DNA from: Escherichia phage PhiNW-E1
DNA: 45,197 nucleotides
Sequence record: PQ476011.1
Direction: 5' to 3' (one strand)
The notes under the pieces: generated by a model
What the model was told of the DNA's origin: nothing
What the model saw: only the letters and a program-made list of their open reading frames with translations
The model's database searches: none
Position numbers and translations under genes: made by a program
Shown here: positions 1-19,125 of the stretch, piece after piece
Numbering within the stretch: position 1 is the first letter of the stretch
Layout: every line of letters starts with the position of its first letter

Positions 1-300
1 GTGAGCGTACACAATAAACATGCAGCTACGGAAGACGAGGTTGGCATTCTACATGGTGCTATTACCAAAATCTTTAATAAGAAAGCACAGGCAATACTGG
101 ACACTATAGAAGAAGACCCAGATGCAGCACTGCATTTAGTCTCTGGTAAAGACATTGGAGCTATGTGTAAGTGGGTTCTTGATAATGGTATTACCGCTAC
201 ACCCGCTGCACAGCAGGAAGAGTCCAAGTTATCTAAGCGCCTCAAGGCTATCCGAGAGGCATCCAGTGGTAAGATAATTCAATTCACTAAGGATGAGTAA
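1..300 (+). CDS. Terminase small subunit (T7 gp18-like); start may be the GTG at position 1 if the window is circularly closed
   Basis: 99-codon ORF ending TAA 298-300, directly upstream of the large terminase; C-terminal region resembles T7 gp18 from memory; GGAGGAGGA at 45186-45194 would serve as RBS for GTG at 1 across the junction. Confidence 0.55.
   Translation: MSVHNKHAATEDEVGILHGAITKIFNKKAQAILDTIEEDPDAALHLVSGKDIGAMCKWVLDNGITATPAAQQEESKLSKRLKAIREASSGKIIQFTKDE
92..114 (+). promoter_or_regulatory. Phage RNAP promoter-like sequence inside the small terminase ORF
   Basis: AATACTGGACACTATAGAAGAAG matches the recurrent 23-bp promoter consensus except at -16/-15. Confidence 0.4.
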
Positions 301-745
301 TATGTATAGATGGTATGAATCTCAAGGTTATACCATCTTACCTTCAGGTGTCATCCTTTCCAAGGGTGGCACACCTCTCAAACCTTTTAAGGCGGGTAGT
401 GGTTATTTAGCAGTTAAGCTTAAAAACAAAGAAGGTAAATGGCGTAACGTCTATGTACATCAATTAGTGGCTTATAAGTATTTACCTAAAACAGGTAATG
501 AAATAAATCACAAAGACGGTAATAAGCACAATAATAATGTTAGTAACTTAGAGTGGGTAACAAGAAGTGAAAATAATTATTTAAAATGCAATGGAAATGA
601 TAGGAGTGCCTTAAATAAATACTTAGCAGTATTAAAGGATTGCTTCTTGCAAGGTAAGAGTATAGCAGAAACAGCTAGACTTACTGGTAAAAGTGAACCG
701 AGAGTTTCTTCTATCTTTAAGGAGTGGCGAAATGGCAAAGGCTAG
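293..745 (+). CDS. HNH homing endonuclease (free-standing, between terminase subunit genes)
   Basis: 150 aa; HNH motif region VHQLVAYKY...NHKDGNKHNNNVSNLEWVTRSEN; C-terminal HTH-like segment; paralog of ORF 15186-15602. Confidence 0.75.
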   Translation: MSNMYRWYESQGYTILPSGVILSKGGTPLKPFKAGSGYLAVKLKNKEGKWRNVYVHQLVAYKYLPKTGNEINHKDGNKHNNNVSNLEWVTRSENNYLKCNGNDRSALNKYLAVLKDCFLQGKSIAETARLTGKSEPRVSSIFKEWRNGKG

Positions 746-1898
746 AGAATCACAGGCAGAAGCATTAAAGAGGTGGGAAAACCTTAAGGAGCTGCAAGAC
801 ACTTTTAAATATACAGCGGAAGGTTTGCTTCTCTTTGCAGATACAGTTATTCATAACTTAATTGCAGGCAACCCCCATCTGATTCGTATGCAGGCGGATA
901 TCTTGAAGTTCCTATTTTACGGACACAAGTACCGCCTCATCGAAGCGCCCCGTGGTATCGCTAAGACAACACTATCAGCAATCTATACGGTATTCCGTAT
1001 TATTCATGAACCGCATAAGCGTATCATGGTTGTGTCCCAAAACGCCAAGCGAGCAGAGGAAATCGCAGGTTGGGTAGTTAAAATCTTCCGTGGCTTAGAC
1101 TTTCTTGAGTTTATGCTGCCGGATATCTACGCTGGGGACCGTGCATCCGTTAAGGCGTTTGAGATTCATTACACCCTACGTGGCAGTGACAAGTCGCCTT
1201 CTGTGTCTTGTTACTCAATCGAAGCAGGTATGCAGGGTGCGCGTGCAGATATCATCCTAGCAGATGACGTTGAGTCAATGCAGAATGCTCGTACAGCGGC
1301 AGGACGTGCCTTGCTTGAGGAACTGACCAAGGAGTTTGAATCTATTAACCAGTTTGGTGATATTATCTACCTTGGTACTCCTCAGAACGTAAACTCTATC
1401 TACAATAACCTACCTGCTCGTGGTTACTCTGTTCGTATCTGGACTGCACGTTATCCCTCAGTGGAGCAGGAGCAATGCTATGGTGACTTCCTTGCACCTA
1501 TGATTGTGCAGGATATGAAGGACAACCCCGCACTTCGCTCAGGGTACGGGTTGGATGGTAATAGTGGTGCACCTTGTGCCCCTGAAATGTATGATGATGA
1601 AGTCCTGATTGAGAAGGAAATCTCGCAGGGTGCGGCTAAGTTCCAGCTTCAGTTCATGCTTAACACTCGCATGATGGATGCTGACCGCTATCCGCTACGC
1701 CTGAACAACCTCATCTTCACTTCATTCGGTACAGAGGAAGTCCCTGTGATGCCTACATGGAGCAACGACTCTATTAACATCATTGGCGATGCACCGAAGT
1801 ATGGCAATAAGCCTACAGACTTTATGTATCGCCCTGTGGCCCGACCGTATGAATGGGGCGCTGTCACCCGTAAAATTATGTACATTGACCCCGCTGGT
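732..1898 (+). CDS. Terminase large subunit, exon 1 (ATPase domain through ...KIMYIDPAG)
   Basis: RBS TTAAGGAGTG 718-727 then ATG 732; ORF runs to a stop at 1947-1949 but homology to T7 gp19 stops near YIDPAG; exon end at T1898 inferred from P1 pairing GCTGGT(1893-1898)/GCCAGC(1909-1914). Confidence 0.75.
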
Positions 1899-2644
1899 AA
1901 ACACCTCTGCCAGCGTAAAACCCTCTTAATTCGGTGGAACTCTCACTGAGACAATACCGAGCGAAGCCTGTTGCAATAACAGGAACGTGTAGAGACTAAC
2001 TGTAAGGCCAAGCGGTCTGAAACAGAGGGAGGCGCAAGCCTAAGATATAGTCCGACCTACTAGGTGACTAGTAGAAGTTAAAGTAGCGAATTAACGTAAC
2101 AATTGAAGGGAGTTAAATATGACAGAGCATAAAGTTTATCATATTCGTGTTGTTGGTGAAACTGATGTAATGCAAGGTTATATTGGTGTAACCTCCGATA
2201 TTAAGAAGCGTATGAGAGAGCACAAGTGTGCAGGCCGTCTTTGTGATGGCCGCGAGTACGTTATCTTATTCACTGGTAGCAAAGAAGAGTGTTATGCACT
2301 AGAAGAGAAGCTACGCCCACATGACAACATGTGTTGGAATAAGGGTAAAGGTGGTTATCGCAAAGCAGGTAACATCGAGAAAGGTGAACGCATAAGTATT
2401 GCCACTGAAATCAAGAAAGGACAGCACTTGTCTGTTGCCACTGAGTTCAAGAAAGGCATGACACCTTACAACAAAGGTACTGGCAAAGATTACATATTCA
2501 CTTCTCCAGATGGTGAAGAGTTTCTTGTAACTTGCATTACTGACTTCTGTAAAGAGCACAACCTAACACCTCAGAATATGCGTAAGGTGGCACGTGGTTT
2601 ACGTAAACACCACAAGGGTTGGCTCGCACGTCACGTTCAAACCG
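1899..2644 (+). mobile_element. Group I intron (IA-like core) carrying a homing endonuclease ORF
   Basis: P-like AATTCGGTGGAA 1928-1939; Q-like AATACCGAGC 1953-1962; R-like GTGTAGAGACTAAC 1987-2000; S AAGATATAGTCC 2041-2052; P3 CCCTCT 1921-1926 with AGAGGG 2024-2029; P7 GACTA/TAGTC; omega G at 2644; P10 CCTCT 1904-1908 with GGAGG 2645-2649. Confidence 0.7.
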
Positions 2645-2652
2645 GGAGGTAA
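2119..2652 (+). CDS. GIY-YIG homing endonuclease with NUMOD-like repeats, intron-encoded
   Basis: 177 aa; N-terminal KVYHIRVV...GYIGVT (GIY-YIG-like); repeated IATEIKKGQH / VATEFKKGMTPYNKG segments; RBS AGGGA 2106-2110; stop TAA 2650-2652 lies 8 nt into exon 2. Confidence 0.7.
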   Translation: MTEHKVYHIRVVGETDVMQGYIGVTSDIKKRMREHKCAGRLCDGREYVILFTGSKEECYALEEKLRPHDNMCWNKGKGGYRKAGNIEKGERISIATEIKKGQHLSVATEFKKGMTPYNKGTGKDYIFTSPDGEEFLVTCITDFCKEHNLTPQNMRKVARGLRKHHKGWLARHVQTGR

Positions 2653-3376
2653 GAATGGGGATGAAACGGGTGTGGCTATCGTCTTCCTGCACGGCACATT
2701 CATTTACGTGTATCAGTGCTTCGGTGTGCCAGGCGGATACCGTGAATCGTCCCTGAATCGCATTGTGCAGGCCGCAAAGCAGGCGGGTGTTAAAGAGGTA
2801 TTCATTGAGAAGAACTTTGGTCATGGCGCGTTTGAGGCCGTTATAAAGCCATACTTTGAACGAGAGTGGCCTGTAACTCTGGAAGAGGATTACGCCACAG
2901 GACAGAAAGAGTTGCGTATCATTGAGACGCTGGAGCCACTCATGGCGGCGCACAGGCTCATCTTCAATGCCGAGATGGTCAAGTCTGACCTTGAGTCAGT
3001 ACAGCACTATCCACTTGAACTACGCATGTCCTACAGTCTTTTCAATCAAATGTCGAACATCACGATTGAGAAGAACAGCCTCCGGCACGATGACCGCCTA
3101 GACGCCCTGTATGGCGCTATACGGCAATTAACTTCTCAGATAGACTATGACGAGGTTACACGGATTAATCGCCTCAGAGCGCAGGAGATGCGCGATTACA
3201 TCCATGCTATGAATACACCTCATCTACGCAGGGCAATGCTATATGGAGATTACGGTACTGAGCGAAGAGTGACCAACACTTCCGTAGCGATGCAGCAGCG
3301 AGTTTACGGGCAGAACTACCGAAATAAATCGGCAAGCAGAAATACACTTTCTGCAAGGATTTCAAGGACTTATTAA
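2645..3376 (+). CDS. Terminase large subunit, exon 2 (nuclease domain, begins GGKNGDETGVAIV)
   Basis: Frame continues from exon 1 when 1899-2644 is removed, giving ...YIDPAG|GGKNGDETG..., comparable to the T7 gp19 segment DPSGRGKDETG as I recall it; the ORF-track Met at 2594 is intronic. Confidence 0.75.
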   Translation, partial: GGKNGDETGVAIVFLHGTFIYVYQCFGVPGGYRESSLNRIVQAAKQAGVKEVFIEKNFGHGAFEAVIKPYFEREWPVTLEEDYATGQKELRIIETLEPLMAAHRLIFNAEMVKSDLESVQHYPLELRMSYSLFNQMSNITIEKNSLRHDDRLDALYGAIRQLTSQIDYDEVTRINRLRAQEMRDYIHAMNTPHLRRAMLYGDYGTERRVTNTSVAMQQRVYGQNYRNKSASRNTLSARISRTY

Positions 3377-3397
3377 TTACTGGACACTATAGAAGGA
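3375..3397 (+). promoter_or_regulatory. Phage RNAP promoter
   Basis: AATTACTGGACACTATAGAAGGA; predicted +1 G at 3392; overlaps terL stop codon. Confidence 0.7.
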
Positions 3398-3537
3398 AGG
3401 CCAAGATAATAAGATAAAATAATAGGTAATATATAGGTTAACCTAGGTTATATAGGTATGCCTTAGTATGGGTGTACTCCTGTACACCCTATTCCTTACT
3501 ACCTTACTATATTTACATAATAGGAGAGAGAGAGACA

Positions 3538-3813
3538 ATGGCTAATGATTATAGTAGTCAACCATTAACAGGTAAGTCTAAGAGAAAGCAGGTACAACCT
3601 GTAAGTGAAGAACTAATGCTTCCGGTAATCCCAAAAGAGGCAGCTAGTAAGAAAAGCAATGTTATTAATGATGCCACCAAATCAGGTAAACAGAAAGGGG
3701 CCATGGTATGCCTTGAAGTGGACGGTGCATTGAAGATTGCTATCGCTGTTGATGGCAAAGAAGATTCAGAGTGGAAGTTAGTGACAGGGGAACTCCCTGT
3801 TACCCCAGTTTAA
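3538..3813 (+). CDS. Hypothetical protein, paralog A of a tandem pair
   Basis: RBS AGGAGAGAGAGAGACA then ATG 3538; shares SGKQKGAMV-LE-D...IA-A motif with ORF 3832-4122. Confidence 0.6.
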   Translation: MANDYSSQPLTGKSKRKQVQPVSEELMLPVIPKEAASKKSNVINDATKSGKQKGAMVCLEVDGALKIAIAVDGKEDSEWKLVTGELPVTPV

Positions 3814-3831
3814 GAGAAGGAGGAAGATTAC

Positions 3832-4122
3832 ATGGCTAAATATGGTACTACAGGTTCTGTTACTGGTCAGGCTTTTCGAGTAAAAACAGTACAAACTATT
3901 GCAACGGCAATCCCTATGCCTGTTGTTAAAGAAGCAGACCTTAAGAGTAAAGATCACCCTATCAACATCAAACACCTGTCAGGTAAGCAGAAAGGTGCAA
4001 TGGTTGCTCTTGAGAAGGATGACACAACCTTACATATTGCTGTTGCACGTGGTAGTGAACCCACAGACCCTTGGGATGTAACTGGTATGGAAGAGGAAGC
4101 TGTTACTCCAGCAGAGGTATAA
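3832..4122 (+). CDS. Hypothetical protein, paralog B of a tandem pair
   Basis: RBS GAGAAGGAGGAAG then ATG 3832; SGKQKGAMVALEKDDTTLHIAVA motif. Confidence 0.6.
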   Translation: MAKYGTTGSVTGQAFRVKTVQTIATAIPMPVVKEADLKSKDHPINIKHLSGKQKGAMVALEKDDTTLHIAVARGSEPTDPWDVTGMEEEAVTPAEV

Positions 4123-4124
4123 TA

Positions 4125-4469
4125 ATGCTTAATAAATACTTCAAGCGTAAAGAGTTTGCTTGCCGTTGTGGCTGCGGTACATCCACTGTTGATGCTGAAT
4201 TACTACAGGTAGTAACAGATGTGCGTGAGCGCTTTGGTTCTCCTGTAGTTATCACTTCGGGGCATCGCTGTGCTAAGCACAATGCTAATGTAGGAGGAGC
4301 TAAGAGCTCCATGCATCTTACTGGTAAGGCTGCTGACATTAAGGTACGAGGCATCTTACCTTCTGATGTACATAAGTATCTTACTGATAAGTACCAAGGC
4401 AAATATGGGATTGGTAAGTATAACTCCTTTACTCATATTGATGTACGTGACGGGTGTGCACGATGGTAG
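4125..4469 (+). CDS. Endolysin, peptidase M15-type (VanY / L-Ala-D-Glu peptidase-like)
   Basis: 114 aa; SGHRCAKHNANVGG...SMHLTGKAADI...H zinc-peptidase pattern; RBS GAGG 4113-4116. Confidence 0.7.
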   Translation: MLNKYFKRKEFACRCGCGTSTVDAELLQVVTDVRERFGSPVVITSGHRCAKHNANVGGAKSSMHLTGKAADIKVRGILPSDVHKYLTDKYQGKYGIGKYNSFTHIDVRDGCARW

Positions 4470-9913: not shown

Positions 9914-10057
9914 AGAGATTAGGCCGGGAGTATCGGTGTGAGGGACAAGGAGGCTTTCCCACAATTAAACTGGTGGCAAAAGGATTGCCCAGCTTTATAG
10001 CCCAGTTATGGATAGCAATAGCGTAAGGATGGCAGCACACCCGCGAGTCTAATCTCT
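9914..10057 (+). ncRNA. ORF-less structured element between motif copies 2 and 3 (candidate small RNA or processing substrate)
   Basis: 144 nt with no ORF over 15 codons; ends pair as AGAGATTAG (9914-9922) with CTAATCTCT (10049-10057); internal hairpins. Confidence 0.3.
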
Positions 10058-15140: not shown

Positions 15141-15163
15141 ATTTACCGGACAGTATAGATAAG
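15141..15163 (+). promoter_or_regulatory. Variant phage promoter (C to G at -5)
   Basis: ATTTACCGGACAGTATAGATAAG; tandem with promoter 14947 across an AT-rich repeat region. Confidence 0.45.
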
Positions 15164-15185: not shown

Positions 15186-15602
15186 ATGCGTAAATCATTA
15201 GCTCAAAGAGTAGAGCAAGCAGGTTATACTATACAAGACGACGGTACTATCAAAGGTAGGCGAGGTAACATCTTGAAACCTTGGCTTCAATCTTCAGGTT
15301 ATCCAGTTGTAAATATAGTATTCAAGAAAGGTACAAGGACAACTACCCTTGTGCATCGCATAATTGCTAGTAAGTATTGTCCTTGCTCTGACCCGTTGGC
15401 TAATGATGTAAACCACAAAGACGGAATCAAGACTAATAATGCAGCTTCTAATCTTGAATGGATTACACGTAGGCAGAACCGTAATCACTATTTAGGTTTT
15501 GAGGACTATATGACACTTACGGCAGATGATGCCCGTAAGAAGAATAATGAGCGCACTATTGCTCGACGTAAATTACTTAAACAGTTGAATAATAAGGACT
15601 AA
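15186..15602 (+). CDS. HNH homing endonuclease (free-standing)
   Basis: 138 aa; RBS GGAGG; VHRIIASKY...NHKDGIKTNNAASNLEWITRRQN; paralog of 293-745. Confidence 0.75.
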   Translation: MRKSLAQRVEQAGYTIQDDGTIKGRRGNILKPWLQSSGYPVVNIVFKKGTRTTTLVHRIIASKYCPCSDPLANDVNHKDGIKTNNAASNLEWITRRQNRNHYLGFEDYMTLTADDARKKNNERTIARRKLLKQLNNKD

Positions 15603-15604
15603 TT

Positions 15605-15736
15605 ATGCGTACTAACTTCGAAAAGATGACCCGTAAGGCTAACCGTTTTGACATGGAAGAAGGGCAGAAGAAAGGCAAGAAGCTGAATAAACCTGTCCGT
15701 GACCGTGCATCTAAACGCGCTGCGTGGGAGTTCTAA
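15605..15736 (+). CDS. Small basic protein, T7 gp1.1-like
   Basis: 43 aa, hand-translated (MRTNFEKMTRKANRF...KLNKPVRDRASKRAAWEF); resembles T7 gp1.1 as I recall it. Confidence 0.6.
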   Translation: MRTNFEKMTRKANRFDMEEGQKKGKKLNKPVRDRASKRAAWEF

Positions 15737-15739
15737 GTT

Positions 15740-17728
15740 ATGGCTATTATTCAGAATGTACCGTGTCCTGCCTGTCAAAAGAATGGACACGATAAATCCG
15801 GCAATCATCTCATGATATTTGATGATGGTGCTGGCTATTGTAACCGTGGTCATTTCCACGATAACGGCAAGCCTTACTATCATAAGCCAGATGGTGGCAT
15901 CGAGATCACCGAGTTGCCTATTACTGGCAATATCAAATATACACCTTCTCAATTCAAAGAGATGGAGAAGGAAGGGAAGATAAGCGACCCTAAGTTACGC
16001 GCCATCGCACTTGGTGGCATGCGTATGAAAGACCGATGGGAGGTCATGAATGAGCAAGAAAGGGCAGACCAAGAAGCAGAGTGGAAACTTGATGTTGAAT
16101 GGTTCCTCACGCTTAAGCGTAAGAATCTTGTTTCCCGACACATTCGCGGCGACATTTGCGCATTGTATGATGTACGTGTCGGACACGATGAAGATGGTAG
16201 AGTCTCACGGCATTACTATCCACGCTTCGAGAAAGGTGAGCTAGTAGGCGCTAAGTGTCGCACATTACCTAAAGACTTTAAGTTTGGTCATTTAGGTAAA
16301 CTCTTTGGTATGCAAGATCTTTTCGGTATGAATACCTTGTCTCACGTGTTAGACAAGGGAAGACGAAAGGATTGCTTGCTTATTGTGGGCGGCGAACTGG
16401 ATGCACTAGCAGCACAGCAAATGCTCCTTGATTCTGCCAAGGGTACTAAGTGGGAAGGCCAGCCTTACCATGTATGGTCTGTCAATAAAGGTGAGTCTTG
16501 CCTTGAAGAGATAGTACAGAACCGTGAACACATCGCCCAATTTAAGAAGATTATATGGGGTTTTGATGGCGACGAGGTGGGGCAGAAGCAGAATCAGCAA
16601 GCGGCTCGCCTGTTTCCTGGCAAATCCTATATCCTTGAATACCCTTCTGGTTGCAAAGATGCTAACAAGGCATTGATGGCTGGCAAGGCTAAAGAGTTTG
16701 TTGATGCTTGGTTTAATGCCAAGTCATCTGATGAAGTCTTTGGTAGCCAGATTAAATCTATCGCATCTCAAAGGGATAAGCTCAAGGCTGCACGTCCAGA
16801 GCAAGGGTTATCATGGCCTTGGCCTAAGCTGAACAAGGTAACGCTAGGTATTCGTAAGAACCAGCTTATCATTGTAGGTGCAGGCTCTGGTGTAGGTAAG
16901 ACTGAGTTCCTTCGCGAAGTGGTTAAGCACCTCATTGAAGAGCACGGTGAATCTGTAGGCATCATTTCTACAGAAGACCCGATGGTCAAGGTGTCCCGTG
17001 CTTTTATCGGTAAGTGGATTGATAAGCGTATTGAGTTACCGCCAACCAACGACCCGAAAGAAGACGGATACCGTGAGGTGTTCGACTACACCGAGGAAGA
17101 AGCTAACGCTGCCATTGATTATGTGGCTGATACAGGAAAGCTATTTGTGGCTGACCTAGAGGGTGACTATTCGATGGAGAAGGTAGAGCAAACTTGCCTA
17201 GAGTTTGAGGCTATGGGTATTTCTAATATCATCATTGATAACTTAACGGGGATTAAATTAGATGAGCGTGCTTTTGGTGGGAAGGTTGGTGCACTTGATG
17301 AATGCGTCAAACGAATTGGTACTATCAAAGACCGACATGCGGTTACGATTTTCCTTGTCTCTCACCTTACACGTCCTCCGGCAAACCGTACCCAACACGA
17401 AGAAGGTGGCGAAGTTATCCTTTCTGACTTCCGAGGCTCAGGCGCTATCGGATTCTGGGCATCTTACGCCTTGGGGATTGAGCGTAATACAAGAGCTGAA
17501 ACGCTTGATGAAAGGACTACCACGTACATCTCTTGTGTCAAAGACCGCGACCAAGGTATCTACACAGGAACCAAAGTCATGCTCAAGGGTGACATTCAGA
17601 CCGGACGCTTGAGAGAACCACAAGCTAGAACAAGGTCGTTTGATACAGGCGAAGCAAGGCAACAAGAAGTACCGGATTTACCGGACACTATAGAAGAGAC
17701 AACATTTGACGATGAACAGGAGTTTTAA
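15740..17728 (+). CDS. DNA primase/helicase (T7 gp4 family)
   Basis: 662 aa; N-terminal Cys zinc motif CPACQKNGHD...CNRGH; Walker A GAGSGVGKT; acidic C-terminal tail ending DDEQEF. Confidence 0.9.
   Translation: MAIIQNVPCPACQKNGHDKSGNHLMIFDDGAGYCNRGHFHDNGKPYYHKPDGGIEITELPITGNIKYTPSQFKEMEKEGKISDPKLRAIALGGMRMKDRWEVMNEQERADQEAEWKLDVEWFLTLKRKNLVSRHIRGDICALYDVRVGHDEDGRVSRHYYPRFEKGELVGAKCRTLPKDFKFGHLGKLFGMQDLFGMNTLSHVLDKGRRKDCLLIVGGELDALAAQQMLLDSAKGTKWEGQPYHVWSVNKGESCLEEIVQNREHIAQFKKIIWGFDGDEVGQKQNQQAARLFPGKSYILEYPSGCKDANKALMAGKAKEFVDAWFNAKSSDEVFGSQIKSIASQRDKLKAARPEQGLSWPWPKLNKVTLGIRKNQLIIVGAGSGVGKTEFLREVVKHLIEEHGESVGIISTEDPMVKVSRAFIGKWIDKRIELPPTNDPKEDGYREVFDYTEEEANAAIDYVADTGKLFVADLEGDYSMEKVEQTCLEFEAMGISNIIIDNLTGIKLDERAFGGKVGALDECVKRIGTIKDRHAVTIFLVSHLTRPPANRTQHEEGGEVILSDFRGSGAIGFWASYALGIERNTRAETLDERTTTYISCVKDRDQGIYTGTKVMLKGDIQTGRLREPQARTRSFDTGEARQQEVPDLPDTIEETTFDDEQEF
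17676..17698 (+). promoter_or_regulatory. Phage RNAP promoter embedded in the 3' end of the primase/helicase gene
   Basis: GATTTACCGGACACTATAGAAGAG; +1 G at 17693. Confidence 0.65.
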
Positions 17729-18655: not shown

Positions 18656-18871
18656 ATGACTAAAGTATTAATTTATATGAGAGGTTCTCGTAGATGCTAT
18701 GCAGTTGTATCACCTGATGGTGTCAAGCCCTATGGTACTTCAAAGGGGTTGGCATTAATAGGTGCCAGTCGTAGTGTAAGTTTTCAGAGGGAACTTTTCG
18801 GTCATTGGACTGAAAAAGAGTTCCGTAAAGATTTTAAAGTTATTGGCTCTTTTATGGTGGAGACTAAGTAA
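18656..18871 (+). CDS. Hypothetical protein
   Basis: 71 aa; RBS AAGGGG. Confidence 0.5.
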   Translation: MTKVLIYMRGSRRCYAVVSPDGVKPYGTSKGLALIGASRSVSFQRELFGHWTEKEFRKDFKVIGSFMVETK

Positions 18872-19125
18872 TGAAACAACGTGCAATCAAACGCTGCATC
18901 AAGCGTGCTCAGAAACAATTACGTCGTGGTACATTTAAAGGCCGTATGCGTATTGTAAGTTTTAATGCTAAAGGTATGGTCTTTGTTAGATCTTATCAAG
19001 AGGGTCGAACTATTTATGTAAACGATAAGGGTATTGGCTGGGGCAGAGGCGCTGCACTAGGTAATGGTGGTGGTCACGGTCATTGGGTAGGTAGCAAAGT
19101 AGAGGTGGCAATCTCTTATGTCTAA
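18871..19125 (+). CDS. Hypothetical basic, Gly-rich protein
   Basis: 84 aa; RBS GGAGA; start overlaps upstream stop (TAATG). Confidence 0.5.
   Translation: MKQRAIKRCIKRAQKQLRRGTFKGRMRIVSFNAKGMVFVRSYQEGRTIYVNDKGIGWGRGAALGNGGGHGHWVGSKVEVAISYV

Follow-up and report, generated by a model that had tools for sequence, protein, structure and literature searches.

Three probable homing-endonuclease elements of known types in the Vectrevirus Escherichia phage PhiNW-E1

Overview of the three elements

The genome record of Escherichia phage PhiNW-E1 (PQ476011.1), which was analysed over its whole length of 45,197 nucleotides (nt) and is referred to below as the window, very probably holds three homing-endonuclease elements, independent of one another and of known types, each associated with an essential late or replication gene: a free-standing HNH endonuclease gene (HNH1) between the terminase genes terS and terL, a group I intron in terL that encodes a GIY-YIG protein, and a second free-standing HNH gene (HNH2) at the start of gp8, in the interval between RNA polymerase (RNAP) and primase. 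We infer nuclease activity, the mode of cleavage (nicking or double-strand cleavage), target positions and splicing from sequence. The genes and elements at the three loci lie on the + strand.

Megablast placed the window in Vectrevirus (Autographiviridae, Molineuxvirinae), within the K1E/K1-5 group of capsule-specific E. coli podoviruses, and its first gene is terS. A phage collection of 50,697 records was searched for relatives; it held no record identical to the window, and 68 records at the Vectrevirus level matched in the terS/terL region. The nearest backbone in this collection is SHAK7704 (OR594181.1), with an identity to the window of 97.7% across 25 kb, 98.5% near terS and 99.4% in the RNAP region; it is empty at the HNH1, intron and HNH2 sites alike. 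This record (L066-L068) is marked UNVERIFIED and filed under Studiervirinae/Kayfunavirus, its DNA nonetheless being Vectrevirus; since its feature coordinates and taxonomy line do not match its own sequence, only the DNA was used.

An earlier note on this DNA had pointed to three open reading frames (ORFs) as homing-endonuclease genes, at 293-745 between the terminase subunits, at 2119-2652 as an intron-borne GIY-YIG enzyme unrelated to the other two, and at 15186-15602. All three ORFs were recovered at these coordinates, and the two placements proved right, as HNH1 is part of a 438-nt insertion between terS and terL and the GIY-YIG gene, recognised by invariant residues and a predicted fold, lies in a 746-nt group I intron of terL. 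Together the three insertions sum to 1603 nt (3.5% of the window), and the GC content of the two HNH genes is 35.4% (HNH1) and 38.8% (HNH2), compared to 44.9% for the window. No further endonuclease-sized insertion was found when the whole window was compared with K1E, K1-5, VEc3 and fTuEco01. The HNH1, HNH2 and GIY-YIG proteins are under purifying selection, with ratios of nonsynonymous to synonymous substitution rates (dN/dS) that range from 0.04 to 0.16: 0.12-0.16 for HNH1 versus the VEc3 and AAPEc6 alleles, 0.04 for HNH2 versus UAB_Phi78 and 0.09 for the GIY-YIG gene.

The HNH gene between terS and terL

The HNH1 insertion occupies positions 294-731, as delimited by blastn breakpoints against the HNH-less genomes of K1-5, K1E, fTuEco01 and SHAK7704. 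Exact empty junctions are present in these four genomes and in several IMG/VR loci, and in empty-site genomes the gap between terS and terL, measured from anchor to anchor, is only 12 nt. The upstream neighbour terS (1-300), encoding the small terminase subunit, is recognised by Pfam DNA_Packaging_2 (59.3 bits) and is 93-98% identical to the terS of relatives. The ORF opens at ATG 293, from which a protein of 150 amino acids (aa) would be read; relatives have no ATG at this position, ATG 302 is conserved, and its Shine-Dalgarno spacing is better. Translation most likely starts at ATG 302, 2 nt past the terS stop codon, giving a protein of 147 aa (302-745). At the other end, the last 14 nt of HNH1 overlap the start of terL (ATG 732), and a Shine-Dalgarno sequence for terL, AAGGAG (719-724), read from the sequence within the 3′ coding end of HNH1 and 7 nt before ATG 732, takes the place of TAAGGAGG, the sequence found ahead of terL where HNH1 is absent. 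Like several free-standing endonuclease genes of T4 (PMC2988022), the two HNH genes form cassettes in sense orientation without a promoter of their own.

The HNH1 protein combines an I-HmuI-like HNH_3 nuclease domain with a helix-turn-helix-like (HTH-like) C-terminal tail. The domain was recognised by Pfam HNH_3 (43.9 bits, gathering score 24.8), by PHROG 59 (E=1e-31) and by alignment to I-HmuI (PDB 1U3E; E=8e-8); the tail gave matches to HTH_23 (17.9 bits) and Sigma70_r4 (16.3 bits), both below threshold. HNH1 and HNH2 share 45% identity over 89 aa (E=1e-23), including the NHKDG...NN..SNLEW core. The view of the two genes as paralogues with a common core, taken in the earlier note, is thus correct in that they belong to the same family, and needs to be restricted in that no recent duplication is apparent and the C-terminal parts differ. 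Both proteins, when aligned with 1U3E, retain the catalytic histidine of the first motif and the asparagine at the end of the HNH motif, INHKDGNKHNNNVSNLEWVTRSEN and a second segment of 24 residues standing opposite VDHKDGNKDNNLSTNLRWVTQKIN; loss of these residues, which would have spoken against the assignment, was therefore not found. The roles of the catalytic residues in I-HmuI are reportedly those described by Shen et al. in 2004.

HNH1 is linked to a recoded version of the 5′ end of terL. At positions 737-808 there are 21 fixed differences between eight HNH1-bearing and fourteen HNH1-less sequences, and the divergence between the two groups, 17-49% within this tract, falls to a background of 3-8% beyond nt 90 of terL; the same comparison yielded no fixed difference on the terS side. 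Across the whole collection, identity over the first 100 nt of terL is 94-95% in exactly the 17 HNH1-bearing records and at most 75% in the other 51. Recoding involves five residue changes (A13K, M17N, Q19K, Q23D and P26K) along with many synonymous positions, and a donor lineage was searched for without a match among 30 loci from several genera. The HNH-less version of this tract is unusually conserved, even across genera. The recoded first ~77 nt of terL are probably the protected version of the HNH1 target, which would lie within the first ~80 nt of terL because the recoded tract is perfectly linked to HNH1 and the HNH-less form is conserved. This linkage provides a specific and cheap prediction of the position at which HNH1 would cut.

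Six genomes share an HNH1 gene of 99.5-100% identity, although the sequences flanking it differ by as much as about 6%. The allele of the window shows 90.6-91.1% DNA identity to the VEc3 and AAPEc6 genes and is about 9% diverged from all 17 database copies, and its protein differs from that of VEc3 at 13 of 147 residues.

A different gene with HNH_3 and HTH domains was observed at exactly the same terS/terL junction in an IMG/VR locus (L006, IMGVR_UViG_3300045988_003055, 2570-3001). Its 143-aa product shares 37% identity with HNH1, the genes are not similar at the DNA level, and the 5′ tract of terL in this locus is of the HNH-less type; this points to another endonuclease lineage at the same hot spot, one that may differ in specificity.

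The group I intron in terL

The terL gene is divided into exon 1 (732-1898) and exon 2 (2645-3376) by an insertion of 746 nt (1899-2644), whose boundaries were set by breakpoints against the intron-less genes of K1-5 and AAPEc6. Rfam RF00028 recognised it with 61 bits (gathering score 50), within the range of 58-90 bits obtained for related introns. The insertion point lies in the catalytic IDPAG/GGKNGDETG motif (the slash marking the junction) of the TerL nuclease domain, and exon 2 encodes the RNase H-like part (Pfam Terminase-T7_RNaseH-like, 114.7 bits). Joining 732-1898 to 2645-3376 in silico restores a TerL protein of 632 aa that is 98.9% identical to that of K1-5 without a gap.

An internal guide sequence, read from the sequence at 1903-1915, accounts for both splice sites. 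Exon 1 CGCUGGU (1892-1898) pairs with the guide GCCAGCG (1909-1915) as P1, in which a U.G pair marks the splice site, and exon 2 GGAGGU (2645-2650) pairs with ACCUCU (1903-1908) to form P10; the 3′ end of the intron reads AAACCG, with the terminal G at 2644. All intron-bearing alleles have GCT GGT/GGA GG around the junction, and most intron-less alleles use other synonymous codons. Two more distant loci (L063 and L064) have GCGGGU in the exon, which pairs with a guide GCUCGC, position 4 being a G.U wobble. Compensatory double changes were found in 31 of 49 predicted pairs across six related introns, some of them from metagenomic phages with an endonuclease of no more than about 40-55% identity, with the P7 pseudoknot left out of the scoring. 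Taken together, these features identify 1899-2644 as a group I intron, which is predicted to be spliced from the terL RNA. The element is 99.9% identical to the K1E intron, which has already been mentioned in the literature (PMC4246154, PMC2504315), and terminases have been noted as targets of phage introns (PMC3984707).

Beyond exon 1 the reading frame stays open for 17 codons of intron sequence and then meets TGA 1947-1949 within the ribozyme core, resembling in-frame stops that have been considered in other group I introns of bacteria (PMC3984707). In a metagenomic T7-like phage (L063, ENA ERZ27260030 k141_12438, 620-4198) terL is interrupted twice. The first interruption, of ~1 kb, follows the ILADD (Walker B-like) motif and holds a 246-aa ORF without a Pfam match, and the second, at DPAG/GG, holds a GIY-YIG gene.

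The intron ORF (2119-2652, 177 aa), a homologue of K1E gp40.5, is placed after P9, with a Shine-Dalgarno sequence of its own. Eleven residues (V6, Y7, H8, I9, G20, Y21, G23, R31, H35, E62 and N74) are invariant among 22 sequences down to 41% identity and make up the active-site set of GIY-YIG nucleases. The predicted structure has the GIY-YIG alpha/beta fold, the model matching I-TevI, UvrC and Eco29kI, and three homologues of the ORF have a precomputed match to PF01541. The protein would consist of a short GIY-YIG domain, a NUMOD3-like linker and a C-terminal DNA-binding domain of the I-HmuI type. Its assignment as a GIY-YIG nuclease holds on the conserved residues and the predicted fold. Homologues with 39-54% identity are located just upstream of the RNase H-like exon in split terL genes of the T7 type, and the family seems to be an old lineage that has specialised in this terL site.

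There is no stop codon for this ORF inside the intron. The ORF crosses the 3′ splice site by 8 nt and ends in exon 2 at a TAA (2650-2652) that is read in the +1 frame of the exon-2 codons GGT AAG (window 2644-2652). A stop beyond the splice site is also present in homologues that are ~53% identical, as TAG (GGT AGT) in L063 (3513-3522) and as TAA in L064 (3492-3501). In the 22-member family the C-terminal residues are GR, GW, GG or longer tails, which fit a +1 reading of alternative synonymous Gly codons, a reading verified on DNA for three GR cases only. If this arrangement is functional, completion of the endonuclease might need unspliced RNA, since the intron, once excised, would be a message lacking a stop codon. 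That the protein is completed only on the unspliced precursor, splicing and its synthesis being mutually exclusive, is a speculative and rather unlikely extension of these observations; if true, the exon-2 stop would provide a built-in control of the timing or dosage of the GIY-YIG endonuclease. We know of no description of such an arrangement for phage group I introns, although no literature search was aimed at it.

The HNH gene at the start of gp8

HNH2 (15186-15602, 138 aa) is recognised by Pfam HNH_3 (33.8 bits, gathering score 24.8), PHROG 959 (E=8.5e-34) and alignment to I-HmuI (PDB 1U3E; E=9e-10). Its C-terminus is a basic tail only, without a match to a DNA-binding domain and, unlike HNH1, without an HTH-like tail. 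An NCBIfam search returned nothing useful, with a trivial weak match of HNH2 to ZorE HNH. HNH2 is 98.7% identical to the VEc3 copy.

The insertion (15194-15612, versus K1E, fTuEco01 and SHAK7704) is located at the start codon of gp8, and ATGCGTAA is found at both of its ends. It supplies a new Shine-Dalgarno sequence for gp8 (15605-15736, 43 aa, PHROG 2490), whose 5′ end, in HNH2-bearing genomes, contains an additional Thr codon together with synonymous changes. Directly upstream of HNH2 there is a 23-mer (15141-15163) resembling a promoter of phage RNAP, putatively of the SP6/K1E type in view of the SP6 consensus. This sequence, ATTTACCGGACAGTATAGATAAG, occurs exactly at this position and again at 17676 with three mismatches (chance expectation 0), and relatives without HNH2 retain it in the corresponding position upstream of gp8. 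The uninterrupted junction between promoter and gp8 start is probably the target of HNH2.

A second endonuclease slot was noticed in the RNAP-primase interval, between gp8 and primase. It holds a NUMOD4+HNH_3 gene in LL11 (L051, 2067-2504) and in two IMG/VR genomes (L052 and L059). The homologous slot gene of phD2B (L060) may be truncated, as its longest ORF beginning with ATG is without the N-terminal part, and in K1E the slot holds an unrelated 72-aa gene, gp8.5.

Distribution among relatives and mosaicism

The earlier note had expected presence/absence polymorphism of these elements among SP6/K1E-type relatives, and such polymorphism was indeed observed for all three, most relatives having clean empty sites. 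HNH1 was present in 17 phage records, which represent 15 distinct genomes and all belong to Vectrevirus; in the other 51 Vectrevirus-level records matched there, terL begins with the HNH-less version of its 5′ tract. The intron was found in 15 records (12 distinct genomes), including phages of Klebsiella, Salmonella and Lelliottia, with a partial match in Vibrio phage VEN, and HNH2 in 10 records, including VEc3, G9, UAB_Phi78, pSL2 and Proteus phages PM116 and PM93, its site being a clean empty site of ~182 nt in most other relatives. The HNH genes are thus not fixed among relatives; a synteny comparison had been proposed as the check on this point, and the empty sites that it revealed include those of the nearest backbone.

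The elements are combined differently from genome to genome: K1E has the intron only, AAPEc6 HNH1 only, VEc3 both HNH genes, and K1-5 and fTuEco01 none. HNH1 and the intron occurred together in none of the 50,697 phage records. Mutual avoidance of the two was considered and set aside, as their non-overlap is not significant (17 and 7 carriers among 68 records) and is compatible with an expected overlap of less than 2. The description of the window as carrying a dense load of selfish elements is accordingly apt as regards this unique combination of HNH1 and intron, and relative in that relatives with two endonuclease genes exist, namely VEc3 and, by record annotation, LL11.

Several observations indicate that the intron has spread horizontally. 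Three loci (L014, L015 and L017) hold it at 98.9-99.1% identity next to terL exons that share only 76-81% identity with the window, and in Klebsiella and Salmonella phages it is 95-99% identical. One further locus (L009) shows a co-conversion tract, with six synonymous changes of the donor type within ~40 nt of exon 2 in an otherwise K1-5-like terL. The terL gene of the window is itself a mosaic: 839-1138 is 99-100% identical to VEc3/K1-5, 1239-1838 is K1E-like overall (99-100% to K1E in 1239-1538 and 1639-1738) with a VEc3/K1-5-like block at 1539-1638 (98% versus 93% to K1E), and from 3085 onward the gene is K1-5-like again. This pattern fits an origin of the window as a recombinant of HNH1-carrying and intron-carrying lineages.

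Two short segments of the window, 9915-10055 and 18871-19125 (18860-19122 in the insertion scan), are missing from K1E, K1-5, VEc3 and fTuEco01, and no nuclease signature was found in either of them. The former is located in the early region and its + strand has no clear ORF, while the latter holds an ORF of 84 aa, basic and Gly-rich, without a PHROG match.

Proposed mechanism and alternative explanations

HNH1 would be transcribed from the late operon, having no promoter of its own, and in a co-infection would most likely nick or cut the conserved first ~80 nt of terL in an HNH1-less relative; repair from the HNH1-bearing genome would copy the gene together with the recoded, presumably cleavage-resistant, terL tract, which amounts to intronless homing. 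The intron would be removed at the RNA level through P1/P10 pairing to the flanking Ala-Gly/Gly-Gly codons, and its GIY-YIG endonuclease would cut intron-less terL near the insertion site, so that double-strand-break repair copies the intron in. HNH2, lying behind a promoter-like sequence, would have taken over the ribosome-binding site of gp8. Intronless homing, co-conversion, promoter-less endonuclease cassettes and the nicking activity of MobA and MobE have been reviewed (PMC2988022).

Several points weigh against this picture. In HNH1 and HNH2 the residue before the catalytic His is Asn, compared to Asp in I-HmuI. The divergence of the window's HNH1 allele (~9%) is larger than that of its flanks, and this allele could be an old resident that is no longer moving. 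The HNH gene that L006 has at the same site adjoins an un-recoded terL tract, and recoding is therefore no general requirement for occupancy of the site; the recoded tract could also be hitch-hiked donor DNA from an unsampled lineage. As for the intron ORF, its Pfam GIY-YIG (PF01541) score of 21.2 bits is just below the threshold of 22.6 and covers residues 20-42 only, and PDB searches with the ORF and with the 22-member profile returned only the C-terminal domain of I-HmuI, not I-TevI. The GIY-YIG assignment rests on conserved residues and the predicted fold because these Pfam and PDB sequence searches fell short. The target proposed for HNH2 derives from three HNH2-bearing sequences only.

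The elements could instead be passive passengers, inactive or immobile, whose patchy distribution results from ordinary mosaic recombination and deletion. The mosaic of VEc3/K1-5-like and K1E-like stretches in terL indicates that recombination is frequent, and the ~91% identity of the window's HNH1 allele to the others makes it an old one, as such a history would have it. We nevertheless consider this explanation very unlikely, given that the dN/dS values of 0.04-0.16 show the proteins to be maintained, that the intron is ~99% identical between exons of 76-81% identity, with splice-site-exact boundaries and a short co-converted tract, and that HNH1 is 99.5-100% identical across backgrounds differing by ~5%. 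Ordinary recombination would not be expected to yield such precise boundaries. For HNH1, its position exactly between terS and terL, the translational coupling to both and the purifying selection that it is under would also suit a non-selfish accessory nuclease for packaging; HNH proteins beside the terminase genes of HK97-like phages (HK97 gp74 type) are reported to stimulate terminase cutting (Kala et al. 2014, PNAS). To this we assign a very small probability, since HNH1 is missing from 51 of the 68 Vectrevirus-level records, including the type phages K1E and K1-5 and the backbone relative SHAK7704, which use the same terminase for packaging, the terL genes being about 91-94% identical. TerL has an RNase H-like nuclease domain of its own, an I-HmuI-like HNH_3 domain with an HTH tail is the architecture of a homing enzyme, and the low GC content and near-identity of HNH1 across diverged backgrounds indicate lateral spread.

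The endonucleases might also serve mainly as weapons between phages, excluding the markers of competitors by cuts in terL or primase, with homing as a by-product. Marker exclusion by free-standing endonucleases has been documented in T4 (PMC2988022), and the targets proposed here lie in essential genes conserved across genera. Such a role would leave the same sequence signatures as homing, and the two are compatible and inseparable on these data; as the principal function of the three proteins we hold it to be extremely improbable, and homing remains our preferred explanation.

Significance and comparison with known systems

Each of the three elements is already annotated in relatives (K1E gp40.5 and the HNH genes of VEc3 and AAPEc6). 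What is new in the window is the triple combination, the ~9% divergent HNH1 allele and the specific prediction of an HNH1 target. Current understanding is left unchanged, as textbook homing biology is confirmed in a less-studied phage group. The window nonetheless represents a compact natural example of homing elements stacked in a 45-kb T7/SP6-like phage, with HNH1 and the intron ~1.2 kb apart in the terminase operon. Furthermore, Vectreviruses are candidates for phage therapy, and genes that bias their own inheritance and drag terL or primase flanks along matter for the design of cocktails and for the reading of mosaic genomes.

Among the close relatives, K1E (genes 40A/40.5/40B) has the intron at the same site and with the same length of 746 nt, which splits terL into two annotated ORFs in the same way; K1E is without HNH1 and HNH2, and the exons around the intron are a different mosaic in the window. 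The HNH genes of VEc3 (gp46 and gp09) and AAPEc6 (gp42) occupy the same two insertion sites in the same orientations, VEc3 gp09 being the counterpart of HNH2, and their HNH1 genes agree with that of the window in length and in the terL tract linked to them, while the terL intron is absent from these phages.

I-HmuI, an intron-encoded HNH nicking endonuclease of Bacillus phage SPO1 (PDB 1U3E), aligns with the HNH1 and HNH2 domains over ~85-100 residues, which cover the N-terminal beta-sheet region and the H...N...N motif. It is borne by an intron, whereas HNH1 and HNH2 are free-standing, and the HTH-like tail of HNH1 differs from it; an I-HmuI-like DNA-binding domain also forms the C-terminal part of the GIY-YIG protein in the window. 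Compared to I-TevI, encoded in the td intron of T4, this GIY-YIG protein has a shorter nuclease domain (~75 aa), with Pfam similarity below threshold, and a DNA-binding domain of the I-HmuI type, and its ORF follows P9 and continues across the 3′ splice site.

The Mob and Seg endonucleases of T4 are encoded by promoter-less intergenic cassettes in conserved operons, target a neighbouring gene and cause co-conversion of its flank (PMC2988022), a description that HNH1 and its recoded terL tract fit. The present case differs from them in its host, a 45-kb T7/SP6-like podovirus, and in the distance to the putative target, which for HNH1 would lie within ~80 nt of the gene instead of hundreds of bp away.

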